Made by a program: the position numbers and the translations under genes. A DNA stretch of 64,000 nucleotides from an uncultured delta proteobacterium (GTDB lineage Bacteria; Myxococcota_A; Polyangia; Haliangiales; Haliangiaceae): NCBI GenBank assembly GCA_963848295.1, contig CAWKDB010000010.1:1952001-2016000 (forward strand). The letters are read 5' to 3'. Each line of letters begins with the position of its first letter. Position 1 is the first letter of the stretch. Of the stretch, positions 26,176 to 41,891 are shown piece by piece. The notes beneath the pieces were generated by a model. The model saw only the letters and a program-made list of their open reading frames with translations. It was not told where the DNA came from and ran no database searches.

Positions 26176-26399
26176 GCAGCCCTCCAAGATGGTCTGCCGC
26201 ACCTACGCGCGCAGCGAACGAAGGTTACGAGCGAACGTCGCGCTCGGCCCGAACATCGGGTGCAAACGTTGCGGCTGAACGAGTGCAGCCAACGCGATTA
26301 TTTTGTATACCAACGAAATGGTGCGGGTCCCACGCTGCGCTGCAATACGGCTCGAGTCCGAGGCGAAGCTCGACGGCATCGTCGGGACTCGCTGACCCC

Positions 26400-28316
26400 G
26401 TGACCCCCGATCCCCAGCCAGCGCGGTTGGACGCGGAGCGTGCGAAGGCCGCACCCGGTCCGCGTCGTCGCCCTGCGCGCCCGACCCAGCCGCTCGCATT
26501 CGCGGTGGACGTCGTGCAGCGGAGTTACCAGGTCTGGCTGACGACCAAGGCGCGGTTCAGTCCGACCGAGCGCCAGCGGCTGTTCGGGCTGACCATCATC
26601 ATCGGAGGTGTGTGCGGGCTGGTGGCGGTCGCATTCCACGAGAGCATCCGCTGGCTCGCCTCGCTCACGATCGATCGCGCGTTCTCCGCATCCGGCGACA
26701 CCTGGATCCTGTGGGTGATCCTGGTGCCGTCGGTCGGCGCCCTGGTGTCGGGCGTGATGCTCTACTACATCCCCGGGGCGCGGGGCAGCGGTGTGCCCCA
26801 GGTCAAGGTCGCCTATGCGCTGAAGGCGATGAAGCTTCGCTTGCGCGACTCGCTCGGCAAGTTCGTGATCGGCGTGGTCCAGATCGGCACGGGCTCGTCG
26901 CTCGGACGTGAGGGGCCGACGGTCCAGATCTGCGCCGGTGTCGCGAAGGGACTCGGCAAGGTCGTCGGGGTGTCGGCGCAGAACATCAAGCTGCTACTTC
27001 CCGTCGGCGCGGCGGCCGGAATCGCCGCGGCATTCAACGCGCCGATCGCCGCGGTCACGTTCACGATCGAGGAGATCGTCGGCAAGCTCGATCAGACCCT
27101 GCTCTCGGGCGTGATCGTCGCCGCGGCGCTCGCGGCCGCCGTCGAGCGCAGCGTGCTCGGCGAGAGCCCGATGTTCTCGATTCCGAAAGCCGAAGGACTC
27201 GACCACGCGTCGTCACTCGTGATCTACGCCGCGCTCGGCGTGGCCGCGGCGCTGGTGTCGATCGCGTTCACCGAGTCGCTGCTGTGGCTGCGACAACGGT
27301 TCAACACATCGAAGAGGGTGCCGGTGTGGTTCGGGCCAGCGGTCGGAGGCGCCGTCACCGGGCTGCTCGGTGTCGCGGCGATGGTCATCGCGCACGTCGG
27401 CGGCATCACCGGCGGCGGCTACGCCGTGCTCGGCGAGGCGCTGTCCGGCAAGTTCGTCGTCGAGGTCCTCCTCGTGCTCGGCGCGTGCAAGCTGGTCGCG
27501 ACCGTGTTCTCGTACTCGAGCGGCGGCTCCGGCGGCATCTTCGCGCCGGCGCTGTTCATCGGCGCCATGCTCGGCGGCGCGTTCGGCGCGATCGACGTCG
27601 CGGTGTTCGGCCACAGCCAGGCGGAGGTCGCATCGTTCGCGTTGGTCGGGATGGGCGCGGTGTTCGCGGGGATCATTCGCGCGCCGATCACTTCGGTGCT
27701 GATCATCATCGAGATGACTGCGGGCTACGGCCTGACCCTACCCTTGATGATCGCGAACATGATGGCCTACGGCCTCGCTCGCCACCTGCGACCGACGCCG
27801 ATCTACGAGGCGCTGCTCGAGCAGGATGGCGTCCAGCTCCACGCGCCCAATCCGGTGCTGGATACGATCGACCGCCTCTCGATCGACCGGGTCAAGCTCG
27901 AGGACGGTCCGCACGCGACGTACCGGGCGAACGAGAAGCCCGTGCGTATGCTCGAGGTCGTTCAGACCGCCGGCCGGCAGGAAGTGTTCCCCGTCCTCGA
28001 TGCGACGCAACGTCTGATCGGCATCATCACGCTCGAGGATCTGACCGCGCTCGCCGCCGAGGCCGACATCGACGACCTGGTCTGTGCGACCGACCTCATG
28101 CGGCCGCCGGTCGCGCTGCAGCAGCACGAGCTCGTGAGTCGCGCGCTCGACCTGATGATGTCGCTGGGCGTGCGCGAGCTGCCCGTCATCGACGCCGACC
28201 AGCGCGTCCTCGGGCTGATCGACGAGGCCGCGATCGCCCGCGAGTACATGCGTTCGCGCGCCGCCGAACGCGCCGATGCCGCTGCGTCCAGCGAGCACCC
28301 GGCCGCGCGCGGATAG
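26400..28316 (+). CDS. CLC family H+/Cl- antiporter with CBS domains
   Basis: GSGVP, GREGP, FTIEE and GGIFAP motifs; C-terminal CBS pair; start uncertain. Confidence 0.92.
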   Translation: MTPDPQPARLDAERAKAAPGPRRRPARPTQPLAFAVDVVQRSYQVWLTTKARFSPTERQRLFGLTIIIGGVCGLVAVAFHESIRWLASLTIDRAFSASGDTWILWVILVPSVGALVSGVMLYYIPGARGSGVPQVKVAYALKAMKLRLRDSLGKFVIGVVQIGTGSSLGREGPTVQICAGVAKGLGKVVGVSAQNIKLLLPVGAAAGIAAAFNAPIAAVTFTIEEIVGKLDQTLLSGVIVAAALAAAVERSVLGESPMFSIPKAEGLDHASSLVIYAALGVAAALVSIAFTESLLWLRQRFNTSKRVPVWFGPAVGGAVTGLLGVAAMVIAHVGGITGGGYAVLGEALSGKFVVEVLLVLGACKLVATVFSYSSGGSGGIFAPALFIGAMLGGAFGAIDVAVFGHSQAEVASFALVGMGAVFAGIIRAPITSVLIIIEMTAGYGLTLPLMIANMMAYGLARHLRPTPIYEALLEQDGVQLHAPNPVLDTIDRLSIDRVKLEDGPHATYRANEKPVRMLEVVQTAGRQEVFPVLDATQRLIGIITLEDLTALAAEADIDDLVCATDLMRPPVALQQHELVSRALDLMMSLGVRELPVIDADQRVLGLIDEAAIAREYMRSRAAERADAAASSEHPAARG

Positions 28317-28342: not shown

Positions 28343-28655
28343 TCAAATCGTTTGCGTAGCGACGAGATGCGGCATTCCAGGCGGGAGTCGGCCCAGCTCC
28401 GGATCGAGATCGCTGAGCACCGCCGAGGCGAATCGAGTGACGTCGCGGTATCGGAGTGTGCCTTGAGGAAACTCGAGCTTCTCCAGCGCGTCGCCGCGAC
28501 GCCAGCCGAGCTCGACGAACTGCGTGCCCGGCGGAACATCGACCTGGCGCGGTACGTTGCGACGAACCGTTCGTCGCTGAAGATGTGCAACGAAACCTAC
28601 CGAGGTAGAAACCACCAGGGCTTCCGCACTCGTAGCTGACGGCGTCAACAGCCAT
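28343..28655 (-). pseudogene. Degenerate paralog of the 139-aa toxin-locus protein
   Basis: Three frames give MAVDAVSYECGSPGGFYLGRF / LHIFSDERFVATY / VELGW..FASAVLSDLDPELGRLPPG, matching both ends of 28699-29118 with the middle deleted. Confidence 0.7.
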
Positions 28656-28698
28656 TACTTGACTCCAAACTCCGAACCTAACCGCTCGCCCACAGCGA

Positions 28699-29118
28699 TC
28701 AGGCGTGTTGTTGAACATCAACGATCGGCGTGGTCTGACCCGGTGGCATGCGAGCGATCTTCGGCTCGAGCATGGACAAGATCGACGATGCGATGATGGA
28801 TATCGCGACGTAGGTGCGGTCACCCTCGCCGATTTCAATCCGCTCCCACGTTCCGTCCGTCTCCAGCGCGAGCTCGACTGGATAGGAACCCGACGAGACT
28901 GGGGCAATTGGCGCAACGCGCGGGAATCCTGCGTCACTGACCGCGGCAGTCGCGCGATCAAATGTTCCGCGCACCAACGTTCCGCGCCAACTCGTTCGCT
29001 TCTTGCGATGCTCGTAACTCGCCTCGAATCGATCGTCCGCGTAAAGCCTGAGCTCGAACCGGCCGGAGTAAGGATTGCTGGGGCTCCCATTGCAGAACGA
29101 AATCTGGGTAGCGCTCAT
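28699..29118 (-). CDS. Hypothetical protein, putative immunity or accessory factor
   Basis: ATGA-coupled to the upstream HEAT gene; paralogs elsewhere in the locus. Confidence 0.75.
   Translation of the reverse strand: MSATQISFCNGSPSNPYSGRFELRLYADDRFEASYEHRKKRTSWRGTLVRGTFDRATAAVSDAGFPRVAPIAPVSSGSYPVELALETDGTWERIEIGEGDRTYVAISIIASSILSMLEPKIARMPPGQTTPIVDVQQHA
28886..29060. repeat. 175-bp direct repeat, copy 1 (copy 2 at 35501-35675)
   Basis: gaacccgacgagactgggg...gcctgagctcgaacc occurs at both sites (offset 6615). Confidence 0.92.
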
Positions 29119-30017
29119 GATCTGCTTTCCCGCACATCGCTCACCAACCGCTCCGGGCCGGCGGCTCCGAGCTCCGGCACTAGGTCGCCACCGATCTGGC
29201 CGGTCAGCCTCACAATGTCGCGATATCGGGTGCTGGCGATCGGCGCCTCCAGCTCGGCCCGGTTTCCATCACGGGTACATCCGATGATGATGGCCTCTCC
29301 TGCGCGCGGCGCCGGAGGTCCCGGGAAGCCGGCGAGCTCCATCGCGCCAACGGCACGATCCCAGGTCCCGGGGACAACCGTGCCGCGCCAGACCTTGTCA
29401 GCACAGTGTACTTCGAATGCGTCATGTGTGAGCGAGACTGTCGTCAGCGCGTCGCGCGTTTCGATCCGCGTCGTGCGTACGAGGTCCGCTTCGGTTCCGC
29501 GATCGGCCCCCGTTTCGCGCATCACCGCATCGAGCCTCGTCCAGAGTATGCCGTCCTCGAGTGGGCGATCCAATGACGAGGCCGGCTTTGGGCGATCCAC
29601 TGCGTTGGGCAAATAGACAGTGAAGAACTCCGTATAAGCGATCGCCCGGACGGCATCCGGTTGCGTATCATCGACGACGAGCTGATACAGGCGGCGAAGC
29701 GTGGACGGAGAACGCGTAGCCGTGTCGTAGGCCGCCCACGCGAGAACGGCGATCCCGCGGGTCTCGTCGTCTGGATCTTCCCTCATCATCTGCTCGGCTA
29801 CTTCGCGATACGCAGGCAGCTGCCAATAAAAGCCAAGTGTGCGGATCGCGGCAGAGCGAAGATCCGGTTCCGGGTCGTGGAGATACTCCGCGACCGCGGG
29901 TGCCAGCGTCTTTTTGAACGACTTACCGATCGCGATGATCGCGCTGTAGCGATCGTCCAGCGTCTGTGCATCGCGAACGCGCGAGAGCGCAGCTTTCTCG
30001 TCTGGCGTCATCGTCAT
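29115..30017 (-). CDS. HEAT-repeat immunity protein with extra C-terminal domain
   Basis: ATG 30017 overlaps the toxin stop; HEAT motifs YLHDPEPDLRSAAIRTLG and DPDDETRGIAV. Confidence 0.8.
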   Translation of the reverse strand: MTMTPDEKAALSRVRDAQTLDDRYSAIIAIGKSFKKTLAPAVAEYLHDPEPDLRSAAIRTLGFYWQLPAYREVAEQMMREDPDDETRGIAVLAWAAYDTATRSPSTLRRLYQLVVDDTQPDAVRAIAYTEFFTVYLPNAVDRPKPASSLDRPLEDGILWTRLDAVMRETGADRGTEADLVRTTRIETRDALTTVSLTHDAFEVHCADKVWRGTVVPGTWDRAVGAMELAGFPGPPAPRAGEAIIIGCTRDGNRAELEAPIASTRYRDIVRLTGQIGGDLVPELGAAGPERLVSDVRESRS

Positions 30018-33000
30018 GTCTTCGACTCCACTGTATCTAGAAGTTTGGAGTGTCGCGACAACCAACGCTGGAGCGCCTCGCGTGCATCGTCATCCAAATC
30101 ACCGGCGAGCTCGCGCTTCACTCTGTCGATCGCGTTGATCACGCCCTGTCGTGCTGCATCGACCTCGGCGACATGTTGGAAGGCCCCTCCAGCTGGATTC
30201 GGGATGGCAACCCCTCGGTTTTCCTTGATCACCGCGGCGAGATCGTCCGGCGTCATATGATCGCGAACCGCGCGTTCTGCGCGACGCAAAACGTTCTGCG
30301 TCGCCTGTGGCACCGCAGTGAGGTCCGCTTCGCGTGAGTCCTTGAGGACACGATTCCGCTCGTTCGCAACCTCCTCGAGGTCGCGCTGCTCATCGGCGGC
30401 CAAGGGTTGCGGCAGGTTCTTCCCCGTGTTCGAGAGCTGCGCCTCGGGCGTTCCCTTTGTCTTCGGCGCTTCAGGCGCGTGTCCTGCAACTGGCAGTTCT
30501 TGCGTATCGGCCGCGGCTTTCACCTCATCGATTTCGGGTGGGCCTCCAGCGCCTGACATCCTCCGAGTTTCTGCTGCAGCCTTCACCTCGTCGAACTCAG
30601 GCGGCGCGACGGCACTCATCGGCTTCGTTACCTTCGCAGCAGCGGCCTCGCTCTGCATCGCACGATCAATGTCGCCGCCGATCTGGTCGATGTGGCGCGC
30701 CTTGAGCGAGGCTACTTTCTCGCCCTCGTCCCAGAAGTCACCCATCAGACTGTTGTCATTGAAAAGGGCGCGATTGGGAGAGCGACCGAGCTCCTCGTAC
30801 TCGTCGAGTAAGCCGATCTGATGCGATAGCTCGTGGGCAGCGACCTCCTCGCTGGCGTCGTCGGTAAGCCAGCGGTACTGATGCGTCTTCTTCACGCGAA
30901 ACCCGGTCGCGGGATCGTACGGGCACTCGATGTCGACCACCAGATCCGCCTCTGCAGGATCATCGACGAAGTTGATGCGAACGTGAAGGTTGCTGCCGTC
31001 TTGAAGCGTGTGGAGGCGCTTGCCGTCCTTGAAGTTGTAGAAGCGATCGATTCCGTTCTTGGAGTGATCCTTCATGATCTCGATCTCGACGTCGTTCACC
31101 GCTTCGCCGGGACGCATATGTACGTCGAGCGTGATCTCGGTCAGCGGACCGTCCGCTGCCTCGAACTTCCGAACGTCGAACTTGCTATCGACGATAACGC
31201 TACCGTCGTAACGCCTGTTCTTGACCTCGGTGACATGCGCGGCTTCGCGCGCCTCCGCCTCCTTGAGCTCGGCTTCGAACTTCTCGTAGTGCGGACCGCG
31301 TGAGACGTTGGTAGCGCCTTCAACTTCGCCGCGAATCTGCTCGGGTGCCCCGAGGTTCGCCTGCGTCACCGCGACCTCGGTCGCCGGCTCGCCGACCTTC
31401 GCGAGCGCCGTCTCGGTCTTCGCCGCGTCGGCCGCCTCGCCCGGCATGCGCGGTGCGCTGTCCGCGAGCTCCGCGTCGCCCGCGACTTCCTGAACGCCTT
31501 TATCGACGATCTCGGCCTTTGCCTCTTGAGTCGCGCCGTGCTCGACGAGCTCGCCTGCGGTCTTCTCGCCGATTTCGACTGCATCACCGCCGATCGCGCC
31601 GACCTTGCGCATCTGGGCGAACCTGGCGACGCCCACGGTCGCGAGATCGACGACGGCGTCGATCGCCAGCAACTTCGTATCGTCGGCCGGGTCGTAGGCT
31701 TCGCCCGCGACGGACTTCTTGATCGCCATCGTCGCGAGCCCGGACGCGATGTCGATGAGCGCAAACAGCTCCGGCTGCGCCGTTAGTAGCGCGGCGATCT
31801 TCGCGATCGTCGCGAAGATGTGACCGAGGTGTTCGCCGAGCTTGATCTTCTCCTCGCGCTGAACGTCGAGCGTTTGCGCGAGGTTCTGGTCGATCTCGCG
31901 GAACTCGGCGTCGGAGACTCCCGACTTGAGCTCGCGCGGTCCCAGGCCGAACGGATCCGCCGCCGGTCGAAGCATGTCGTCTTGAACGAGCAGCTGCTCG
32001 CGCGCGAGCTCCTCGGTGCCGGCGTTGCCTCCGTACTGCTCGCGCATCGTCTCGCGGTTATCGAGCGAGTCGCTATGTTGCTTGTCGTAGAGCTCGACTT
32101 GAAGGCGATGCTCGAGATCGGGCCGGCGCTCCGGCTTGACGCCGTACTCGCGCACGTTGTCGATCTTCAGCTCCATCGCGTTCAGATCGTCGTGAGCGAG
32201 CTCGCGTTCGATCTCCTCGAGCGGCCTCTCGTCGCCCTCGGCCTTCGCGTTCAGTGCATCGTTCTGGAACTTGGCGAGCTCGGGCGCCTCGAGCATGTCC
32301 TTGCCGTACTTGGCCTTGAACTCGGCTTCGTCGAACATCAGACCCTTGTTCGACTTGATCCCTTCGAGCACGGCGACGCGATCCTTGTCGCTGTCCGCGC
32401 GGTGATACTCCGTCGCCGTGCTGAACTTGCCTTCGCTCCACAGCTCGGTGGTGCCGATCTCGTTGTCCGCTGCCTCTGCCTTGCGCTTCTCGCGGTCGTG
32501 ATCTCGCGTGACGGCGAGCTGTTCCTCTACGAAGGCGTTGTCGCTGTGCCTATCGGTCTCGACGTACGACGCGTAGTGCGCGGCGAGCTGCTGGTCGACG
32601 CCATGCTCGTCGACCTTCGTGGTGTCGCGCCCGGTGAGGATAGCCACCCCGCGTTGCTCGCTTGCATCGAGCTCGGTCGCCTTCGCGGCCAGGGCTTGTT
32701 TCTCGGCCAGCGCGGCCGCTCGCTTCTGGGGATCGGTGCTCGACAGGTCCGGACTCGTGAGCGCGGTCTCGATCTCCTTCTGGTCGTTTTCGCGCATGCC
32801 CTCGCGCAACGCGTAGGCGCGATCTTCGGCCCGTTCGCCGCGCAACAGCGCCGCGACCCGCATGTCGGTCGTATCGCCATCGTTGAACCGGTCCTTCAGT
32901 AGCTCGTCGAACGTCTCGCCGCCCGTCGCGGCAGCTTGCCGGTCCCACGCGGTCCGAGCCGCTTTGATCTCCTCGGGCGGCATCTGCTCGAGCTCGCGGA

Positions 33001-33199
33001 GCACGTTGCTCGCCTTGCGGACGTCGTAGTTGTGGAGGCTCTGCGCGTCGATCTGCCCGTAGTCGCCGGTCTTCATACCGTCGCCGCGCTTCTTCAGCAT
33101 GTTCGCGATGTGAATGCCTTCGGCCGCCGCGCGGTCTCCGGCCGACAGCTTCAAGATCTCCTCGCGGTTGTCCTCGGAGACTACGACCCCGCCCTGCAT
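30014..33199 (-). CDS. 5'-truncated polymorphic toxin: shared trunk, HExxH metallopeptidase, Ntox28-like tip
   Basis: Trunk matches 36080-39439; AHELSHQIGLLDEY..SLMG; tip DHMTPDDLAAVIKE..GGAFQHVAEV. Confidence 0.8.
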   Translation of the reverse strand: MQGGVVVSEDNREEILKLSAGDRAAAEGIHIANMLKKRGDGMKTGDYGQIDAQSLHNYDVRKASNVLRELEQMPPEEIKAARTAWDRQAAATGGETFDELLKDRFNDGDTTDMRVAALLRGERAEDRAYALREGMRENDQKEIETALTSPDLSSTDPQKRAAALAEKQALAAKATELDASEQRGVAILTGRDTTKVDEHGVDQQLAAHYASYVETDRHSDNAFVEEQLAVTRDHDREKRKAEAADNEIGTTELWSEGKFSTATEYHRADSDKDRVAVLEGIKSNKGLMFDEAEFKAKYGKDMLEAPELAKFQNDALNAKAEGDERPLEEIERELAHDDLNAMELKIDNVREYGVKPERRPDLEHRLQVELYDKQHSDSLDNRETMREQYGGNAGTEELAREQLLVQDDMLRPAADPFGLGPRELKSGVSDAEFREIDQNLAQTLDVQREEKIKLGEHLGHIFATIAKIAALLTAQPELFALIDIASGLATMAIKKSVAGEAYDPADDTKLLAIDAVVDLATVGVARFAQMRKVGAIGGDAVEIGEKTAGELVEHGATQEAKAEIVDKGVQEVAGDAELADSAPRMPGEAADAAKTETALAKVGEPATEVAVTQANLGAPEQIRGEVEGATNVSRGPHYEKFEAELKEAEAREAAHVTEVKNRRYDGSVIVDSKFDVRKFEAADGPLTEITLDVHMRPGEAVNDVEIEIMKDHSKNGIDRFYNFKDGKRLHTLQDGSNLHVRINFVDDPAEADLVVDIECPYDPATGFRVKKTHQYRWLTDDASEEVAAHELSHQIGLLDEYEELGRSPNRALFNDNSLMGDFWDEGEKVASLKARHIDQIGGDIDRAMQSEAAAAKVTKPMSAVAPPEFDEVKAAAETRRMSGAGGPPEIDEVKAAADTQELPVAGHAPEAPKTKGTPEAQLSNTGKNLPQPLAADEQRDLEEVANERNRVLKDSREADLTAVPQATQNVLRRAERAVRDHMTPDDLAAVIKENRGVAIPNPAGGAFQHVAEVDAARQGVINAIDRVKRELAGDLDDDAREALQRWLSRHSKLLDTVESKT
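31402..33160. repeat. 1759-bp near-identical direct repeat, copy 1 (copy 2 at 36589-38347)
   Basis: Constant offset 5187; identical shadow ORFs in the track; one mismatch noticed (33143 c vs 38330 t). Confidence 0.95.
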
Positions 33200-33446
33200 C
33201 GCCCCGCACCCAATCGAGCGCGAGCGCCTTTGCGCCGCGCTGCCAGACCGTGCGGTCTGTCGCCTCCGTCGCGACCGGCACCGCTGACGACTCCACGTTC
33301 GCGTCTCGGATCAGCAGCGCGACGCTCATCCCGCCGAACCGACCTGACGCTGCTCGATCATCGTCGGTGTGAGCACACGGATCCTCCAGAATTGTTTCGC
33401 TCCAACGTCTGGACCCGCTGCCACGAGGTTGCGACGCTGATCGCGA

Positions 33447-34763
33447 TCATGCGTCCTGGTGCAGCTCGAGTATCGGCGTGGTCGCGCCCGGAGGCATGCG
33501 AGCGAGCTTCGGCTCGAGCATGCAGATTATCGAGGATGCGATGACGTCTATCGCACCGTAGGCCTCGTCATCTTCACCGACGCGAATCCGATCCCACACG
33601 CCGTCCGCTTCGCGGCCGAGCTCGAGCAATGAGGTTCCAGATAGTCTCGGGCCGATCGGAGCCGAGTGCGGAAAGCCCCCCGCCGCGAGCGCGGCTAATG
33701 CGCGAGCGAACGTACCGATGACCAACGTGCCGTGCCACATACGCCGTGTACGATGCTCGTAACTCGCCTCGAATCGGTCATCGACATGGAGCAGGAGCTC
33801 GATCCTGCCGGAGTATGGGTTGTGTGGATTTCCATGGCAGTACGAGATCTGCGTGACGTTCATCGTTGCTTCGCGTCGCGCCGTGTCGACCAATCGGTCC
33901 GGGCCAGCCGTTCCCAGCGCCGGAACCAAGTCGCCGGCGACCGCCCCGGCGATCCGAATGATATCCCGATATCGACTGCTCGCCATCGGCGCGTCGAGTT
34001 GGCCTCGCGCACCATCACGCGTGCACGCGATCGCAATGACGTCTCCCTCATGCGGCGCCGCAGGTGCCGGAAAGCCGGCGAGCTCCATCGCGCCGACTGC
34101 GCGCTCCCACGTTCCTGCGACGAGGGTCCCACGCCAAACTTTGTCATCGCAGCGCAGCTCGAATGCGCCGCGCGTGAACGAAACGCTCGCGACCGGACCA
34201 CGCGTCTCGATCCTCGTGGTGCGCGCGAGCTCGGTCTCACTCGCGCGATCGGCGCCAGTCTCGCGCATGGCAGCGTCGAGTCGCTTCCAATCGATTCCAT
34301 CTTCGACCGGATGATCAAGCGACGATGCAGGCTTCGGCCGACCGACGGCGTTAGGCAAATACACGGTGAAGAACTGACTGTAGGCGACGCTGCGCACCAT
34401 TGTGGGTTGCGTATCGTCGATCACGAGCTGATATAGGTGGCGCAAGGTCGAAGGGGCGCGCGCGGCTCTGTCATATGCAGCCCATGCCAGAACGGCAACC
34501 GCGCGCGTTGCGACATCCGGCTCCTCGCGCATCATCTGCTCAGCGACTTCGCGATAGGCAGAGATCTGCCAATAGAACCCCAGCGTACGAATCGCCGCGG
34601 AGCGGAGCTCAGGATCCTCGTCGTGCAGATACTCGGCGATGACGGGCGCGAGGTTTGTTAGTGACGCCTTGCCAATCGCGATGATCGCGCTGTAGCGATC
34701 CCCCGAGGTCTTCGCGTCGCGTAGCGCGGCGAGCGCGGCCGTTTCGTCCGCCGTCATCGTCAT
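33447..34763 (-). CDS. HEAT-repeat immunity protein fused to two accessory domains
   Basis: ATGA-coupled to the orphan toxin; corresponds to paralogs of 29115-30017 and 28699-29118 in a single frame. Confidence 0.8.
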   Translation of the reverse strand: MTMTADETAALAALRDAKTSGDRYSAIIAIGKASLTNLAPVIAEYLHDEDPELRSAAIRTLGFYWQISAYREVAEQMMREEPDVATRAVAVLAWAAYDRAARAPSTLRHLYQLVIDDTQPTMVRSVAYSQFFTVYLPNAVGRPKPASSLDHPVEDGIDWKRLDAAMRETGADRASETELARTTRIETRGPVASVSFTRGAFELRCDDKVWRGTLVAGTWERAVGAMELAGFPAPAAPHEGDVIAIACTRDGARGQLDAPMASSRYRDIIRIAGAVAGDLVPALGTAGPDRLVDTARREATMNVTQISYCHGNPHNPYSGRIELLLHVDDRFEASYEHRTRRMWHGTLVIGTFARALAALAAGGFPHSAPIGPRLSGTSLLELGREADGVWDRIRVGEDDEAYGAIDVIASSIICMLEPKLARMPPGATTPILELHQDA

Positions 34764-35500
34764 ATCTTCGACTTGACTGTATCGAGGAACTTGGAATATC
34801 GCGACAGCCAAGCCTGGAGCAGTTCGCGCTCGCCGTAGCCACCCACCGCGGCGTCGACTCGGCCCAGTTCGTCCTTCACGGTCGCGATCGCGTTGAGCAC
34901 ACCTTCGCGAGCGGTCTCAACTTCCGCAACGTGGTCATACACGCGTCCCACCGCATTCGTGATCTCGACTCCTCGCTCCTCCTTGATCACCGCGGCCAGG
35001 TCATCGGGCTTCATGTGATCGCGAACCGCGTTCTCGGCGCGTCGCAAGATGTTCTGCATCGCCTCTGGTAGCGCCGAGAGGTCAGCTTCGCGCGAAATTC
35101 TGAGCACTCGATTGCGCTCGGTCGCGGCTTGCTCGAGGCTGCGCTGCTCGTCACTCGTCAGGGGCTGCGGCAGGGTCTTGCCGGTATTCGAGAGCTGTGA
35201 CTCGGGCAGGCCGAGCGTCTTCGGCCCTCGGGGTTCGGTTCCGGCGACCAGCGTCTCTTGGGGCTCGGCGGCAGCGTTGACGTCGTTGAACTCGGGTGGT
35301 GCAACCGCGACCATCGGCTGCGTGACCTTGCTAGCCGCGGCCTCGCTCCGGCGCGTACTCTCGATGTCGCCGCCGATCTGCTCGATGTGCCGCGGCCTGA
35401 TAGAAGCGGCTTTCTGACCCTCCACAGGGAAGTTGCCCATCAAGCTGTGGTCAGTGAATACAGCGCGCCCAGGCGAATCGGCGAGATCAACGTATTCGTC
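34760..35500 (-). pseudogene. Orphan toxin module: truncated metallopeptidase plus Ntox28-like tip
   Basis: In-frame homology to 30014-33199 starts abruptly at 35500 (DEYVDLADSPGRAVFTDHSLMG); tip DHMKPDDLAAVIKE..YDHVAEV. Confidence 0.8.
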
Positions 35501-35675
35501 GAACCCGACGAGACTGGGGCAATTGGCGCAACGCGCGGGAATCCTGCGTCACTGACCGCGGCAGTCGCGCGATCAAATGTTCCGCGCACCAACGTTCCGC
35601 GCCAACTCGTTCGCTTCTTGCGATGCTCGTAACTCGCCTCGAATCGATCGTCCGCGTAAAGCCTGAGCTCGAACC
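35501..35675. repeat. 175-bp direct repeat, copy 2 (internal fragment of the 139-aa gene)
   Basis: Matches 28886-29060. Confidence 0.92.
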
Positions 35676-35789
35676 TGCGCGAACTCGGTCTGGAGCCGGT
35701 GCTCGAGGTCGGGCCGGCGCTCCGGCTGCACAACCGCGGCCGTATCCGCGGTTCCATCGGCGTGCTGGTTCGTTACGGCTTCGGCTTCG

Positions 35790-36083
35790 TCACCGATTCT
35801 CGCCGTCTCGGTCGACTGGGGGCGTTGATTCTGCGTCAACGATTGTCGCCCCATTGAGAAGCGCAAGGGCGAACCCCGGGGCAGCGATCGTCAGTGTGTA
35901 TTCATTCGAAGTCTTAGGTGGGTCCACGAAAGCGACTGTTCGTATGACTATCGGGAGCGAGCCTTCGCGCGTCTGTGCCGTCGCGGCGATCCCGTGGCGG
36001 AGAGCTCCGCTTTCGAGTACTCCAGTTACCGTGTCGACGCCGGCAATTCTGGATACTTGCTTGACAACGAAACGGAGGCTCAT
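35790..36083 (-). CDS. Putative cognate immunity protein (97 aa)
   Basis: ATGA overlap with the toxin stop; small, beta-rich, visibly lower GC. Confidence 0.65.
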   Translation of the reverse strand: MSLRFVVKQVSRIAGVDTVTGVLESGALRHGIAATAQTREGSLPIVIRTVAFVDPPKTSNEYTLTIAAPGFALALLNGATIVDAESTPPVDRDGENR

Positions 36084-39000
36084 CGTGGTGCCTGCTCCTT
36101 CGCGAGTGTCTCTCGTAAGCGCCGCAGTCGCGCGATTGTCTGACGGGTTTCCACCGGCGAAATCCCGTACTGCCTACGGTTGCGAATCAGCTTTTCCGCC
36201 GCCTCGATCTCCATCTCAGTCACGTTGGCGCCGGTCGCCCGCCCGGTGCGATACTGCGCGGTGTGAATGAACTCCTCGAACGTCTCCGAGGCGGTTGGCT
36301 GGGGACGTAGCACCATGGTCTTCGCATTGAGTGTGACGGCACTGGCCTCGCGCGCTTCAAGATATGCTTGGGCTTCCGCATCCTGGGCGAGAACACCGCC
36401 CTGTCGTTCGAAGGCCCGTTTCATCTTTCCGAATCGCTCGGCGTCCATCGCGGGGCCGTCGATCGGCTCGCTCGTCATCCCTGCATCGAGGTCGTAGCCG
36501 CTCTGCGACCGATCTATCGTTGCCTCGACCTCCCACTCGTCCCCCGAGACCTCGGCGGGATCCTCGGGCACGCGGGTCGCTGAACCCTCGAGCGCCGTCT
36601 CGGTCTTCGCCGCGTCGGCCGCCTCGCCCGGCATGCGCGGTGCGCTGTCCGCGAGCTCCGCGTCGCCCGCGACTTCCTGAACGCCTTTATCGACGATCTC
36701 GGCCTTTGCCTCTTGAGTCGCGCCGTGCTCGACGAGCTCGCCTGCGGTCTTCTCGCCGATTTCGACTGCATCACCGCCGATCGCGCCGACCTTGCGCATC
36801 TGGGCGAACCTGGCGACGCCCACGGTCGCGAGATCGACGACGGCGTCGATCGCCAGCAACTTCGTATCGTCGGCCGGGTCGTAGGCTTCGCCCGCGACGG
36901 ACTTCTTGATCGCCATCGTCGCGAGCCCGGACGCGATGTCGATGAGCGCAAACAGCTCCGGCTGCGCCGTTAGTAGCGCGGCGATCTTCGCGATCGTCGC
37001 GAAGATGTGACCGAGGTGTTCGCCGAGCTTGATCTTCTCCTCGCGCTGAACGTCGAGCGTTTGCGCGAGGTTCTGGTCGATCTCGCGGAACTCGGCGTCG
37101 GAGACTCCCGACTTGAGCTCGCGCGGTCCCAGGCCGAACGGATCCGCCGCCGGTCGAAGCATGTCGTCTTGAACGAGCAGCTGCTCGCGCGCGAGCTCCT
37201 CGGTGCCGGCGTTGCCTCCGTACTGCTCGCGCATCGTCTCGCGGTTATCGAGCGAGTCGCTATGTTGCTTGTCGTAGAGCTCGACTTGAAGGCGATGCTC
37301 GAGATCGGGCCGGCGCTCCGGCTTGACGCCGTACTCGCGCACGTTGTCGATCTTCAGCTCCATCGCGTTCAGATCGTCGTGAGCGAGCTCGCGTTCGATC
37401 TCCTCGAGCGGCCTCTCGTCGCCCTCGGCCTTCGCGTTCAGTGCATCGTTCTGGAACTTGGCGAGCTCGGGCGCCTCGAGCATGTCCTTGCCGTACTTGG
37501 CCTTGAACTCGGCTTCGTCGAACATCAGACCCTTGTTCGACTTGATCCCTTCGAGCACGGCGACGCGATCCTTGTCGCTGTCCGCGCGGTGATACTCCGT
37601 CGCCGTGCTGAACTTGCCTTCGCTCCACAGCTCGGTGGTGCCGATCTCGTTGTCCGCTGCCTCTGCCTTGCGCTTCTCGCGGTCGTGATCTCGCGTGACG
37701 GCGAGCTGTTCCTCTACGAAGGCGTTGTCGCTGTGCCTATCGGTCTCGACGTACGACGCGTAGTGCGCGGCGAGCTGCTGGTCGACGCCATGCTCGTCGA
37801 CCTTCGTGGTGTCGCGCCCGGTGAGGATAGCCACCCCGCGTTGCTCGCTTGCATCGAGCTCGGTCGCCTTCGCGGCCAGGGCTTGTTTCTCGGCCAGCGC
37901 GGCCGCTCGCTTCTGGGGATCGGTGCTCGACAGGTCCGGACTCGTGAGCGCGGTCTCGATCTCCTTCTGGTCGTTTTCGCGCATGCCCTCGCGCAACGCG
38001 TAGGCGCGATCTTCGGCCCGTTCGCCGCGCAACAGCGCCGCGACCCGCATGTCGGTCGTATCGCCATCGTTGAACCGGTCCTTCAGTAGCTCGTCGAACG
38101 TCTCGCCGCCCGTCGCGGCAGCTTGCCGGTCCCACGCGGTCCGAGCCGCTTTGATCTCCTCGGGCGGCATCTGCTCGAGCTCGCGGAGCACGTTGCTCGC
38201 CTTGCGGACGTCGTAGTTGTGGAGGCTCTGCGCGTCGATCTGCCCGTAGTCGCCGGTCTTCATACCGTCGCCGCGCTTCTTCAGCATGTTCGCGATGTGA
38301 ATGCCTTCGGCCGCCGCGCGGTCTCCGGCTGACAGCTTCAAGATCTCGTCCCGATCGGCGCCGGGCGCGATTCGGACAGCAGCCCACTCGGGCCCGAGCA
38401 TCCACTGGCGCTGAGCTGCTTCCGCGAGCTGCGCAGGGGTGAGACCGCGTAATACTTCCTTGATCCGCTCGACGTCATCCCCGGCGTTGATCACGCCGAT
38501 CACCGCTGCGTGGACCGGATCGCCGCTGAGCCCGGCAACCGCTTCATCCTCGTTGCCTTTCGAGAGCGACTTGTCGAGCTCCTCGTAGATCGTGTGATCC
38601 CCATGGGTGTTCTTCCGGATCGCCGCGCGGATCATCTCGATCTCTTCGGGCGTGCGTGGGCCGAGTACTCGGGCGATCTTCTGCGCTTGGTCGTCGTCGT
38701 TCGCGTCGTCGGTACGAGTCACCGCGAGGACCTGCTCGGCCCACGCATTCGCCTGGGTGGCGAGTGCCGCGCGCGCGGTGGGGTTCATCTTCTCGAGCGC
38801 ATGCTCGGTCGCGTCGCGGTCGTCCGAGATCATGTCGAGCGCCTGCGCTTGGTCGCGGTTGCCGTGCCAGTCCGCTTTATCGATGAAATCGCGAAGCGAT
38901 ACGCCGGTCATCTGCTGGAACTTCGCCATCATCTTGTGGCGAACCAGCGGGTCATCGACACGATCGAGGACGTTCAGGAACTGCCAACGCGCGGCCTTGT

Positions 39001-39439
39001 GGTCGGTGTCGTCCTTTGCGGACACGAGGGTCGCGGCAAACGTGGTCGCTTGCAGGTCAGCAAGCTGGTCGCGGACCTGAGCCTTCACCTCTTCGTCGTG
39101 CGCGTGCTGCTCGGCCCCGGCGTCGACCGCCGCCTGTCGAGTCGCGGCCGCTACGCCAGGGTGCTCGGCAGCCTTCGCGGCGCTCGCCTGAATGACCTGC
39201 TGGACGTAGCCATTACCGAGTGAGCGGTGGAGGACCTCGATCATCTGTGCGTGCTCGCGCGGATACTCTTCGAGCAGGTGCGCGACCGTTGGGGGCGCCG
39301 GTCGCCCGCCGGCGATCAGCGCTCGCAGTCGCGCCGCACCGGAGCCCGTTGCGGGGGTCGGCTCGTGTTCGTGCTCCGCAGAGGGCGCGTTCGTCTCGGC
39401 ACGTTGCCCCGCGGAATGATCAGCACCGACCCCAGCCAC
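36080..39439 (-). CDS. Full-length polymorphic toxin: annexin-like helical trunk, hydrophobic pre-toxin segment, zincin-like tip
   Basis: 1119-aa ORF; trunk shared with 30014-33199 but a different C-terminus (FEEFIHTAQ..EIEAAEKL); followed by a coupled small gene. Confidence 0.82.
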   Translation of the reverse strand: MAGVGADHSAGQRAETNAPSAEHEHEPTPATGSGAARLRALIAGGRPAPPTVAHLLEEYPREHAQMIEVLHRSLGNGYVQQVIQASAAKAAEHPGVAAATRQAAVDAGAEQHAHDEEVKAQVRDQLADLQATTFAATLVSAKDDTDHKAARWQFLNVLDRVDDPLVRHKMMAKFQQMTGVSLRDFIDKADWHGNRDQAQALDMISDDRDATEHALEKMNPTARAALATQANAWAEQVLAVTRTDDANDDDQAQKIARVLGPRTPEEIEMIRAAIRKNTHGDHTIYEELDKSLSKGNEDEAVAGLSGDPVHAAVIGVINAGDDVERIKEVLRGLTPAQLAEAAQRQWMLGPEWAAVRIAPGADRDEILKLSAGDRAAAEGIHIANMLKKRGDGMKTGDYGQIDAQSLHNYDVRKASNVLRELEQMPPEEIKAARTAWDRQAAATGGETFDELLKDRFNDGDTTDMRVAALLRGERAEDRAYALREGMRENDQKEIETALTSPDLSSTDPQKRAAALAEKQALAAKATELDASEQRGVAILTGRDTTKVDEHGVDQQLAAHYASYVETDRHSDNAFVEEQLAVTRDHDREKRKAEAADNEIGTTELWSEGKFSTATEYHRADSDKDRVAVLEGIKSNKGLMFDEAEFKAKYGKDMLEAPELAKFQNDALNAKAEGDERPLEEIERELAHDDLNAMELKIDNVREYGVKPERRPDLEHRLQVELYDKQHSDSLDNRETMREQYGGNAGTEELAREQLLVQDDMLRPAADPFGLGPRELKSGVSDAEFREIDQNLAQTLDVQREEKIKLGEHLGHIFATIAKIAALLTAQPELFALIDIASGLATMAIKKSVAGEAYDPADDTKLLAIDAVVDLATVGVARFAQMRKVGAIGGDAVEIGEKTAGELVEHGATQEAKAEIVDKGVQEVAGDAELADSAPRMPGEAADAAKTETALEGSATRVPEDPAEVSGDEWEVEATIDRSQSGYDLDAGMTSEPIDGPAMDAERFGKMKRAFERQGGVLAQDAEAQAYLEAREASAVTLNAKTMVLRPQPTASETFEEFIHTAQYRTGRATGANVTEMEIEAAEKLIRNRRQYGISPVETRQTIARLRRLRETLAKEQAPR
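36589..38347. repeat. 1759-bp near-identical direct repeat, copy 2
   Basis: Matches 31402-33160. Confidence 0.95.
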
Positions 39440-39607: not shown

Positions 39608-41434
39608 TCAGCGCGGCGCGCGCAGCAGGTTGCGCTCGGCGTGCGCGAGCACATCGATCATCTGATCGAGCATCGGCTCGTTCGCCGCGTGCGTGGTCGC
39701 GACCGTGACGTCCTTCGCGAACAACGCGACCATGTAGCGCAGGCGGGCACGCGGCTCGGCCGCGAGCGCGCGGTAGTCGGCGTGACCGATGTTGACGCGC
39801 CAGCTGCCCGATGACATCCGACTGCGCCAGCCGCTCGCCGGTTCGTCGACGAGCACCGGCTCGGGAATGCCGGCGCCCGGGCCGCCGATCGGAGGGCCGT
39901 CGACCACGTCGACCTCGGCGGTGGTCGATGCCGAGCCGCCGTTCGCCTCGGCGACGACGGTGATCGCGTAGAAGCCGCGGTCGGCGAGCTCGGCGAGCGC
40001 GATCGTGCGCGCGCTGCCCTCGCCGTCCATCGACAGCAATGGCGAGCTCGCCGACCACGTCGTCGCCGCCGCGATCGCCTGGCCGTTGAGGTCGGTGACG
40101 ATCGCGCGCACGCGGCGCGCACCTCCGGGCCACAAGCGGATCGGATCGGGCGACAGTCGAACGTGCGCGGCCGGGCCGGGAGGCAACAACTGCGGCTCGT
40201 GCGCGGGCTCGTCGCTTGGCGCGGGCGTCTCTCCGGTCGTGCTCGCGGCGGGGACCGAAGCGCCGGTCGCGAGCGGATCGATCGCGCGCTCGCCGTCGGG
40301 TCCGCCGCGCCCGACGATCGGCGACGGCATCTCGAGGTGAGGTAAGCGATCGCGTAGCCCGCGCAGCGCGCGGCGCAGCTCGGATAGCAGCTGGCGCTCC
40401 GACGCGGCGTGGCGCTGCTCGAGCTGGCGGTCGAGCGCGGCCTGCGCGTACGGCTCGATCCGGGCGAGCGCGGTGACGAACGCCGCCGCGGCCGCATCTG
40501 GGGTGACGCCGCGCCGCGAGCCCGGTGGCACCGCGAAGCCCGCGAACTCGATCGTGCCGGCGAGCGCGGGATCGGTCCACGGTGCGTGGTCGAGCCCGAG
40601 CGCGGCGAGCTCGCCGAGCCGATCGGCGACGACCGTGCCTCCGCAGGTCAGCTCGACGCCGGCCGCGCCGACGCTCGCGTGATACAGCTCGATGACGATC
40701 GGCGAACAGCCGGGCACCTCGACCTGCGCGGGTACATCGAGCCGAACGCCATCGAACCGCCGCGGCACGACCGGGATGCGATCGACGAGCACCCCGCGCG
40801 AATCGAGCTCGCGCACCTCGACCGCGGCGCCGCTCGACAGCAACGGGCCGCGCAGCTCGGCGCCGAGATAGTCGGCGAGCCGACGCGTCGTCAGCGGGCG
40901 CAGCGCCGCGGCGTGGAGCTCGCCGACCACGATCTCGGTGAACGTCGCGGGCGCGTCGATCGTGGGCGGCGCGGGCACGATCTCGGCGCGCGGCTCGTCC
41001 TCGACCAGGCGGAGCAGCCAGGGCGCCGACCCGGCGACCCGCGAGCGGATGTCCATGCGATGGCCGATCGACCAGAACCCGAGCAGCCCGATGCCGTACT
41101 GGCCCGCGACGATCTGCTCGTGGCGCTCGCGCGGCGACAGGTTGCGTTTGTGCGAGCGCCCGATGTGCGTCGCGATGTGGCGAAGCGCGGTCTCGCGGTC
41201 CTCGTCGGGGCGTATCCCGTCGCCGTCGTCGCGCACGACGAGCGTCGCCCGCCGGCCGCGCCGCCGCCGCTCGATCACGATCGCGCGCGCATTCGCGTCG
41301 ATCGCGTTCTGCACGAGCTCGGCGACCGCCTTGCGCGGATCGCTCTGGCTGCGCGCGAGCCAGCGGATCAGATCGAACGCGTCGGCCGGCTGCAGCCGCA
41401 CGCGGCTCGCATCACGCTTCGATCGGATCGGCAC
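39608..41434 (-). CDS. GHKL (HSP90/MORC-like) ATPase domain protein
   Basis: ELVQNAIDA, RDDGDGI, IGRSHK and GQYGIG; likely GTG start at 41434. Confidence 0.82.
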   Translation of the reverse strand: MPIRSKRDASRVRLQPADAFDLIRWLARSQSDPRKAVAELVQNAIDANARAIVIERRRRGRRATLVVRDDGDGIRPDEDRETALRHIATHIGRSHKRNLSPRERHEQIVAGQYGIGLLGFWSIGHRMDIRSRVAGSAPWLLRLVEDEPRAEIVPAPPTIDAPATFTEIVVGELHAAALRPLTTRRLADYLGAELRGPLLSSGAAVEVRELDSRGVLVDRIPVVPRRFDGVRLDVPAQVEVPGCSPIVIELYHASVGAAGVELTCGGTVVADRLGELAALGLDHAPWTDPALAGTIEFAGFAVPPGSRRGVTPDAAAAAFVTALARIEPYAQAALDRQLEQRHAASERQLLSELRRALRGLRDRLPHLEMPSPIVGRGGPDGERAIDPLATGASVPAASTTGETPAPSDEPAHEPQLLPPGPAAHVRLSPDPIRLWPGGARRVRAIVTDLNGQAIAAATTWSASSPLLSMDGEGSARTIALAELADRGFYAITVVAEANGGSASTTAEVDVVDGPPIGGPGAGIPEPVLVDEPASGWRSRMSSGSWRVNIGHADYRALAAEPRARLRYMVALFAKDVTVATTHAANEPMLDQMIDVLAHAERNLLRAPR

Positions 41435-41552
41435 GCCATCGGTTGTAGCGCGCGGCTCTGACGAGCGTGGTGCGGCCTCCGGATTGGGTCCGTGCGGCTC
41501 ACGCGTGTGCTCGCCGATGAGGGTTGGCACGCCCGCTGCTCCTCCGTACACC

Positions 41553-41891
41553 ATGCGCACCTGTCTCTTCGTTGTAACGTTCGCCGTGATCGCGGCATGC
41601 ACCAGCAGCTACCAGCCGCCGGATCTGTCGGGCTCGGTCGCGTGCGGGACCATGACATGCGGCGACGGTCAGCTGTGCATCGACTCGACGCGCGACGGCA
41701 GCGAGGGCTCGTCGAACGAGATCGAAACGTTCAGCTGCGCGACGCCACCCGCGGACTGCCAGCTCCTTGAATGCAGCTACGAATGCCCGCACGAGGGCGT
41801 GAGCAATTGCTGTCCGCCGTGCATCGTGGGTCTGTGCGGCGGCATCCCGGGCTATGACGGCAGCCGGAACGTCAGCTGCGTCGGCTTCTGA
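41553..41891 (+). CDS. Small Cys-rich lipoprotein
   Basis: MRTCLFVVTFAVIAAC lipobox; many Cys; GC-rich third codon positions. Confidence 0.75.
   Translation: MRTCLFVVTFAVIAACTSSYQPPDLSGSVACGTMTCGDGQLCIDSTRDGSEGSSNEIETFSCATPPADCQLLECSYECPHEGVSNCCPPCIVGLCGGIPGYDGSRNVSCVGF

Follow-up and report, generated by a model that had tools for sequence, protein, structure and literature searches.

The subject of this analysis is a stretch of 64,000 nucleotides (nt) from the genome of an uncultured delta proteobacterium (GenBank assembly GCA_963848295.1, contig CAWKDB010000010.1; hereinafter, the window), which contains, at positions 28,343 to 39,439, an array of genes that, judging from its sequence and from its relatives, very probably constitutes a polymorphic toxin–immunity system. 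Because a constant trunk is combined with variable tips, the coupled downstream genes change with the tip, and orphan cassettes are present, the layout is that of polymorphic toxin loci, as the sequence-only reading of this DNA had proposed. The interpretation of the whole locus that we favor, with moderate confidence, is a polymorphic toxin with an annexin-like trunk that would be loaded, by means of an N-terminal leader, into an extracellular contractile injection system (eCIS) and carries interchangeable tips with matched immunity proteins. The contig is 4.9 Mb long, and the genome assembly, of 7.8 Mb, is 85% complete.

All genes of the locus are on the minus strand, and the GC content across it is 0.61–0.65, compared with about 0.68 in the flanking DNA. 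The gene for toxin A, the full-length protein of 1119 amino acids recognized from the outset, is followed by a 97-amino acid gene, a scar, the orphan tip B, a 438-amino acid HEAT-ImmX-ImmX gene, a 43-codon remnant, the orphan module C, a 300-amino acid HEAT-ImmX gene, a 139-amino acid ImmX gene and, finally, a twice-frameshifted ImmX copy (Table 1; ImmX is a label coined here for a domain of about 135 amino acids with no match in Pfam, NCBIfam, PHROGs or the PDB). The earlier observation that tips are coupled, via ATGA, to small or HEAT-repeat genes is borne out by overlaps at four junctions (36083, 34763, 30017 and 29118) and by PF13646 HEAT repeats (E = 5e-8 and 1e-10) in the gene after each of the two orphan tips. 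The two additional modules are indeed truncated at the 5' end, but the tips that they had been thought to carry as different ones are of one family: both belong to Ntox28, and both differ from the tip of toxin A. The 43-codon remnant encodes a sequence with 65% identity to the product of a 102-amino acid gene in the related locus L013. No sigma-70-like promoter was found at the locus, and terminators are not in excess.

Table 1. Features of the toxin–immunity locus (positions in the window)
Feature	Positions	Strand	Description
Toxin A	36080..39439	-	1119 amino acids, GTG start; hydrophilic N-terminus, leader, trunk, Ala/Glu-rich linker, tip
Leader of A	39176..39376	-	~65 amino acids, residues 22-88; consensus G.G..L..LL..G.P.P..V......P.ERD.....LH..LGN..VQ.V
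Conserved trunk of A	36806..39082	-	residues 120-878
Tip of A	36083..36520	-	zincin-like, EEFIHxxQ...E
97-amino acid gene	35790..36083	-	ATGA-coupled to A; GC 0.59; predicted immunity
Recombination scar	35441..35789	-	
Orphan tip B	34760..35503	-	end of zincin plus Ntox28 (D..KE..DHxxE); no trunk start
Predicted immunity B	33447..34763	-	438 amino acids from ATG at 34763; HEAT repeats, degenerate ImmX, second ImmX
43-codon remnant	33201..33329	-	5' remnant of another gene in immunity position, cut by module C
Orphan module C	30014..33199	-	1061-amino acid open reading frame; lacks leader and trunk residues 1-361
Zincin of module C	about 30668-31225	-	HELSHQIGLLD, SLMG turn; followed by the Ntox28 tip (QHxxE)
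Predicted immunity C	29115..30017	-	300 amino acids; HEAT repeats plus degenerate ImmX
c139	28699..29118	-	139 amino acids; stand-alone ImmX gene, predicted zincin inhibitor
Broken ImmX copy	28343..28655	-	two frameshifts; the 101-amino acid reading frame 28343-28648 is its last piece
Direct repeat, copy 1	36589..38329		exact, 1741 nt; copy 2 at 31402-33142, spacing 5187 nt

The C-termini of the homologs, which the sequence-only reading had suggested tabulating, are far from invariant: 59 C-terminal regions, a set that includes some truncated records and a few proteins without an evident enzyme, form 40 clusters by blastp. The tip of toxin A is 83% identical to that of the homolog P0014, whereas the trunks of the two proteins are only 45% identical, which is direct evidence of tip exchange. 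Most of the tips belong to no Pfam family. Ntox28 was detected in tips B and C (E = 1.6e-6 and 2.6e-6; 59–60% amino acid identity to each other) and, above the cut-off, also in L013 and P0034, and Tox-GHH in P0009; weak Pfam matches elsewhere in the family point to adenosine deaminase, EndoU, Tox-MPTase4 and eCIS_core-like domains. Other tips are presumably PD-(D/E)xK, RelA/SpoT-like and papain-like domains, assigned only by sequence motifs. The C-terminus of P0019 resembles RelA/SpoT-type synthetases by such a motif and has no Pfam match. The tip of module C aligns with the structure of the CdiA tRNase (5J5V, E = 0.009), with the catalytic H and E in place; Ntox28 is the family of the Escherichia coli 536 (CdiA-EC536-type) tRNase, with an active site of D, W, H and E (PMC9086364, PMC5562914).

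The second component of the polymorphic layout is the gene downstream of the tip. A coupled open reading frame (ORF) of at least 70 amino acids follows 24 of the 28 toxin ORFs of the related loci, compared with 208 of the 670 long ORFs (31%) of this genome. Like tips pair with like downstream genes (L004 and L009, the two modules of L005, L097 and L100), and L005 has an orphan trunk-tip-immunity cassette of its own. The adenosine deaminase tips (weak Pfam matches; P0042, P0045, P0059, P0064, L097 and L100) are followed by genes with pentapeptide-like repeats. A specific role of HEAT repeats in immunity to Ntox28 is not established: HEAT-repeat genes also follow the toxins of L007, L010 and L103, and the Ntox28 tip of L081 is followed by an unrelated gene. 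For the 97-amino acid gene downstream of toxin A, only two homologs and no family were found; its similarity to domain II of EF-Tu, recognized by eye, gained no support from searches of Pfam, the PDB and the genome and was rejected as unproven.

In front of each orphan tip lies a zincin domain, complete in module C but limited to the last ~50 profile positions in module B, and this domain and ImmX apparently form a second toxin–immunity pair that was not part of the sequence-only reading. The zincin conforms to the metzincin (M6/M7-like) pattern HExxHxxGxxD/H, with H142, E143, H146 and D152 invariant in 13 of 13 sequences and an SLM/FM turn, and its matches to described families are weak (Peptidase_M6 in 4 of the 13; a Streptomyces zinc endoprotease, E = 0.13). 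ImmX follows 12 of the 12 zincin-bearing loci and 1 of the 14 zincin-free loci, with the proviso that most of the ImmX positives served as seeds of the final profile; a fairer figure, obtained with the first profile built from six seeds, is 7 of 8 non-seed zincin loci against 1 of 14 (P = 3.5e-4, related loci not being independent), and in the eighth locus, ImmX was found with a wider profile. These counts leave out L012, a duplicate of L011, two loci with less than 1 kb of downstream sequence (L098 and L105) and seven that are cut by a contig end (L003, L006, L014, L015, L017, L099 and L108). Within a single genome, L009, with a zincin followed by a tip denoted X, is accompanied by a fusion of the immunity domain for tip X with ImmX, whereas L004, with tip X alone, is accompanied by the tip X immunity domain alone (42% identical); L092 and L095 compared with L097 and L101 present the same zincin–ImmX contrast. 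It is therefore likely that ImmX binds or inhibits the zincin, and module C may accordingly be viewed as a putative carrier of two warheads.

A different role of this domain has to be considered, namely, that the zincin is a self-cleaving release protease, as proposed for HINT or the PVC-metallopeptidase (PVC, Photorhabdus virulence cassette), with ImmX silencing it in the producer cell. The location of the zincin directly before the terminal tip in 11 of the 12 zincin-bearing loci, which is the position of processing peptidases in the published description (PMC3482391), fits such a function. Nevertheless, this possibility appears rather unlikely because the zincin is optional, is scattered over the trunk tree, where some members have it between trunk and tip, and is itself the terminal domain in L010/P0015, and because ImmX genes build up as tandem and orphan copies, as does immunity against the toxins of neighbors. 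Such copies pile up to three genes in L011 and seven profile matches in the window.

The trunk of toxin A belongs to a conserved unit of about 760 amino acids. A word-index search retrieved 22 related proteins and a full profile search 108, among which 64 have E < 1e-30; the records are named Kofleriaceae or Deltaproteobacteria metagenome-assembled genomes. Trunk matches were detected in 27 of the 138 genomes of the family, 14 of these strong and 13 confined to the annexin-like part, whereas the seven matches outside the family, among 301 genomes of the phylum, are all weak and partial. (The tallies for the 138 genomes include two, G037 and G038, that are flagged as unpublished; no other claim rests on those two.) The annexin likeness suggested by the sequence-only reading was substantiated in part. 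Toxin A itself has no Pfam annexin match, but the homolog P0014 passes the Pfam cut-off (31 bits), and all 20 remote trunk matches scanned are annexin-repeat proteins, 19 of them above the cut-off. With a profile derived from these remote matches, which makes the search partly circular, an annexin-like repeat is found at residues 253–300 of toxin A (E = 3e-6) and a weaker one at residues 417–460. There is no G.GT in toxin A, that is, no calcium loop of the GxGT type, and the trunk outside the annexin-like part has no named relative; hence, partly annexin-like is how the trunk is best described from its sequence. A moderately hydrophobic segment lies near residues 861–879, just before the variable region. 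The trunk profile gave no matches in a PDB sequence search, and the ESM Atlas yielded no usable match to the trunk. Toxin A lacks FHA, RHS, LXG, PAAR, MuF and DUF4157 matches in Pfam, NCBIfam and PHROGs, in agreement with the original impression; PHROGs matched none of 7 proteins, and NCBIfam yielded none above the cut-off among 27. Giant multi-annexin proteins (2200–4400 amino acids; L110:2400-13487, L111:2884-9537) are encoded in many genomes of the family, with DUF4157 in neither of the two that were scanned.

The leader was likewise absent from the sequence-only reading. This region of ~65 amino acids is shared with nine other ORFs of the genome that have unrelated bodies, for a total of 10 genes. 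A leader profile detected up to 11 copies per genome in 56 of the 138 genomes of the family and had no match outside the family among the 301 genomes of the phylum. Among the 46 leader ORFs retrieved from relatives, 32 were scanned with Pfam, and seven of these have enzyme or toxin matches, two of them weak (phospholipase D, Het-C, M15/VanY peptidases, Ntox28, C39 and ubiquitin hydrolase); in two of the 32 (L065 and L087), the leader directly precedes eCIS_core (DUF4157). In the genome analyzed here, one leader protein ends in a dual-specificity phosphatase. The leader of toxin A follows a hydrophilic N-terminus (mean Kyte-Doolittle value of −0.77 over the first 35 residues). The leader is probably an export tag. 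In the ESM Atlas, the leader retrieved unnamed clusters with scores of 0.93–0.95 and an eCIS_core cluster at 0.80 with 22% of its members, which are leads only. Matches of the leader to PUM-HD proteins (E = 0.0015–0.012), through the GNxVQ part, were taken as likely convergence.

The leader also heads a second polymorphic family. Two leader proteins, L025 (G000:C4:188074-190704) and L081 (L081:2260-4716), share a second trunk (44% identity over ~660 amino acids) but neither the tip nor the partner gene, which implies polymorphism behind the same leader; the tip of L081 is Ntox28, and that of L025 has no Pfam match. We take the latter, by its motif, to be ADP-ribosyltransferase-like. At G000:C9:64926-67718 (L020), a leader gene is apparently split into two ORFs, the second of which has a weak DUF2380 match and partial similarity to the L081 trunk.

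Conversely, one trunk may be headed by different N-termini. In a quick tree of the trunks, the members that bear the leader form a single clade (SH-aLRT, a Shimodaira–Hasegawa-like support value, of 100) nested among members with a PD..ALLPWxD motif, and P0048, in which eCIS_core (DUF4157) is located N-terminal to a full trunk (E = 5e-12), is nested elsewhere inside the family (SH-aLRT 100). Hence the N-termini are swappable. The labels in this tree, assigned by a regular expression, are wrong for some proteins with the PW motif, which appear as 'other'; the tree is used here for no more than the leader clade and the position of P0048. The PD..ALLPWxD motif was not adopted as a general tag since its 22 matches, in 9 of the 138 genomes, mostly lie in front of trunks.

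The locus bears traces of recombination, and the fragments and direct repeats noticed at first sight are present. Module C contains an exact copy of the part of the toxin A gene that encodes residues 371–951, 5187 nt downstream, and the lack of any divergence between the two copies implies a recent duplication or conversion. The scar consists of a 37-nt trunk fragment (35691-35727, 89% identity) and a 178-nt copy of the ImmX gene c139 (35501-35678, 99%), joined to a zincin remnant; in immunity B, the second ImmX is fused in frame at 33863, and the two predicted immunity proteins B and C share 70% identity. At the DNA level, the identity between modules B and C is 71%; both have Ntox28 tips, so they are alleles rather than different families. 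The exact repeat would allow a switch of tips: recombination across it would delete 5187 nt and place the zincin-Ntox28 tip on the full trunk, which is the architecture found intact in the relative L013. This deletion was not seen among contig joints, a result that is uninformative at the low depth available. The orphan modules have neither a leader nor a convincing start (the ATG of module C falls inside a scar), and they would mainly supply immunity, likely as an immunity bank.

An exact repeat of 1741 nt together with frameshifted pieces, in an assembly that is 85% complete, could in principle signify an assembly artefact or neutral debris. This is extremely improbable, given that short-read contigs cross three junctions (33166 in runs X1 and X3, 36589 in X1 and the fusion point 33863 in X1), the DNA of module B matches that of module C at no more than 71% identity, and L005, which also has an orphan cassette, is laid out in the same way. 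Since the source sample might be run X1 itself, the bridging provides support from another assembly and not necessarily from an independent sample. The structure of the locus is, then, probably not an assembly artefact.

Under the favored interpretation, toxin A would be made together with its antidote, its hydrophilic N-terminus and leader would be read by a loading ATPase, and the protein would be threaded into the tube. After injection, the annexin-like and hydrophobic helices might interact with the membrane of the target cell and assist the entry of the tips into the cytoplasm. Tip A would act as a zincin-like peptidase, modules B and C would encode an Ntox28 tRNase, and the second warhead of module C would be a metzincin protease, with ImmX as its inhibitor. 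Of this picture, the sequences show the anatomy of the locus, its polymorphism and the co-variation of tips with downstream genes, whereas toxicity, immunity, loading and tip switching are inferred.

As for the export route, we lean toward an eCIS. The case is built on the two links to DUF4157, on the annexin-bearing PVC toxins of Haliangium and on the requirement for an N-terminal region in the loading of AlgoCIS. Annexin domains have been described as accessory parts of PVC/eCIS toxins, including those of Haliangium (PMC3482391, PMC3894181, PMC8213781), and loading in AlgoCIS depends on the N-terminal region but not on DUF4157 (bioRxiv 10.64898/2026.05.27.728243). The expectation that the export machinery is encoded elsewhere fits the genome, in that none is adjacent and an eCIS locus with Pvc16, two sheaths, tube, spike and baseplate genes lies on another contig (C2, ~913–934 kb). 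VipB, Hcp and ShlB, in contrast, were not found in this genome, although the ShlB search matched no control genome either. Pvc16 is present in 13 of the 14 genomes with strong trunk matches and VipB in none of the 14; in the family at large, VipB was detected in 14 of the 138 genomes and in only one of the 56 leader-positive ones. The broader region of the eCIS (G000:C2:902000-934000) includes the two sheath genes, genes for FHA-domain proteins, an AAA ATPase and, at the distal end, a short DUF4157 gene, and two genes for 2200-amino acid proteins with double DUF4157 are found elsewhere in the genome.

Numerous observations weigh against this interpretation or parts of it. DUF4157 was not found in toxin A or the neighboring gene products and is present on only 1 of the 38 full-trunk proteins in the tree, the toxin locus is not beside the eCIS operon, and none of the listed trunk or leader neighborhoods includes eCIS genes. 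Pvc16 is present in 49 of the 56 leader-positive genomes and in 120 of the 138 genomes of the family, so that there is no eCIS enrichment and the co-occurrence is uninformative, and seven leader-positive genomes, 59–92% complete, lack Pvc16. The first eight residues of toxin A include no aromatic residue. The eCIS loading signals published so far (PMC11297309) are disordered and lack conservation, whereas the leader is conserved, many PVC toxins are reported to lack adjacent immunity genes (PMC3482391, PMC8213781), and a DUF4157-less cargo of a contractile injection system has been demonstrated but is encoded beside its machine (PMC13277306). With the genome 85% complete, secretion systems that were not found in it may nevertheless be present. 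The leader is dispensable for the trunk, given that 11 of the 14 trunk-positive genomes have no leader match. Among the 32 leader proteins scanned, 24 have no Pfam match and one has a weak, unrelated match, and a frequent leader body (L056, L057, L061, L062, L066-L071), of 460–720 amino acids, rich in Gly, Ser and Thr, beta-rich and ending in ..GIRIKF, is not toxin-like. This end resembles the terminal strand of outer-membrane barrels; no signal peptide is evident in the family, and those members that were scanned have no informative Pfam match. Tip A matches Tox-MPTase4 only weakly (E = 0.0066, short of the Pfam cut-off) and has E instead of H as the first zinc ligand. Finally, a family-wide search revealed 22 further ImmX loci, with a zincin within 1.5 kb, a short distance, in four and none in the other 18.

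The leader of the same toxin locus might instead be the tag of another route, a flagellar/type III-like gate or a myxobacterial system not yet described, with the DUF4157 fusions being occasional re-routing: the leader is conserved and, among the 301 genomes of the phylum, confined to the family, eCIS are neither enriched nor linked, some leader bodies are beta-rich, unlike tube cargo, and the genome has a full flagellar cluster (C10:3357000-3385000) and a second, stand-alone FlhA-like gene (C10:4726411-4728321). We nevertheless consider such a route unlikely because the leader directly precedes DUF4157 in two proteins, DUF4157 replaces it on one full trunk, eCIS are nearly universal in the family, and the eCIS_core cluster is the sole named lead from the Atlas. 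Still less probable is the lack of any dedicated injector, with the toxin being released by lysis or in vesicles and entering target cells on its own through the annexin-like and hydrophobic helices, in the manner of a bacteriocin. Toxin A has no signal peptide and no adjacent export genes, its hydrophobic segment immediately precedes the variable region, and one bacterial protein is known to combine annexin with Pyocin_S and colicin D domains (PMC3894181). However, passive release explains neither the three interchangeable N-termini on the same trunk, one of which is an eCIS marker, nor a leader common to 10 unrelated genes.

Comparison with known systems indicates that the locus has the grammar of CdiA and Rhs and the parts of PVC/eCIS cargo. 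The PVC/eCIS toxins with DUF4157 (PVC-metallopeptidase) and annexin domains, such as those of Haliangium ochraceum (PMC3482391, PMC3894181, PMC8213781), share with the present family a myxobacterial host, an annexin-related region before a C-terminal enzymatic toxin, the absence of a Sec signal and variable tips, as well as, in one homolog, the N-terminal DUF4157. Unlike those toxins as described, 37 of the 38 full-trunk proteins lack DUF4157, which is replaced by the leader or a short motif, the conserved trunk of ~760 amino acids has only degenerate annexin repeats without GxGT, a coupled immunity gene is nearly the rule, and the loci include orphan cassettes. In view of P0048 and of these published annexin toxins of Haliangium, the proposal of an undescribed toxin class was too strong; the trunk is linked to known systems, and one of the refuting conditions named in the sequence-only reading, a trunk that maps to a known delivery family, holds in part.

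CdiA/CdiI and Rhs loci likewise consist of a full gene followed by start-less orphan tips, each with an immunity gene (PMC9086364), and the Ntox28 tip matches the CdiA structure. In contrast to these loci as described, FHA and RHS repeats and a signal peptide are lacking here and CdiB was not detected, the orphan has kept an exact 1741-nt stretch of trunk where a short junction motif would be expected, and enzyme domains occur two in tandem; the marks of Rhs or type VI secretion system (T6SS) effectors (RHS/YD, PAAR or VgrG matches) were not found in toxin A. The SitA/SitI pairs of Myxococcus are also myxobacterial polymorphic toxins with immunity proteins (PMC5562445), but SitA are lipoproteins, whereas toxin A, having no cysteine at all, cannot be one and, as anticipated, has no lipobox. 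The closest analogs of the leader are the loading sequences of AlgoCIS Cgo1/Cgo2 and PVC, hydrophilic N-termini before the cargo that are system-specific, with DUF4157 optional (bioRxiv 10.64898/2026.05.27.728243; PMC11297309); those are described as disordered and unconserved, in contrast to a conserved family of ~65 amino acids on many unlinked genes. Toxin A thus does not belong with CdiA, Rhs or SitA, and its status as eCIS cargo is unproven. Annexin-toxin fusions tied to eCIS are already known, whereas the leader, the zincin–ImmX pair and an exact 1741-nt repeat allowing a tip switch were not found in the literature searched, which yielded nothing on the trunk or ImmX either; supplements and figures of eCIS and polymorphic toxin surveys may list distant members.

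Two further genes are adjacent to the locus. Directly upstream of toxin A is a stand-alone gene for an HSP90/MORC-like ATPase (PF13589, E = 2e-13; window positions 39608-41602, minus strand), which was not seen in the listed neighborhoods of homologous loci. At the other end, a gene for a ClC chloride channel with CBS domains (26283-28316, plus strand) ends convergently at the boundary.

The leader and the zincin–ImmX pair are the parts most worth testing. For the choice of eCIS cargo, a conserved leader on many unlinked effector-like genes is a testable tag, the profile of which could find effectors far from the machine. Other additions are a polymorphic toxin trunk that is specific to the family and has tips of some 40 types, a zincin together with what is probably its own immunity family, not named before, and a natural case in which toxin domains in tandem have fused immunity domains as their counterparts. 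A broader generalization, offered tentatively and somewhat doubtful as it stands, is that the Kofleriaceae possess a genome-wide effector code, in which a conserved export tag of ~65 amino acids would be attached, in each genome, to some ten proteins encoded at unlinked sites (toxins, a phosphatase, phospholipase D, peptidoglycan peptidases and beta-rich proteins) and would be swappable onto an annexin-derived trunk with two warheads in tandem; each warhead would have a separate immunity domain, and the two domains would often be joined in a single antidote protein. In that case, the leader would be the first conserved eCIS loading domain or else mark a myxobacterial export route that has not been described and, either way, would be a ready marker for a predator's whole arsenal. 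These findings point to the way in which abundant uncultured soil myxobacteria may fight kin and prey, mostly without a T6SS, as the presence of VipB in 14 of 138 genomes suggests.

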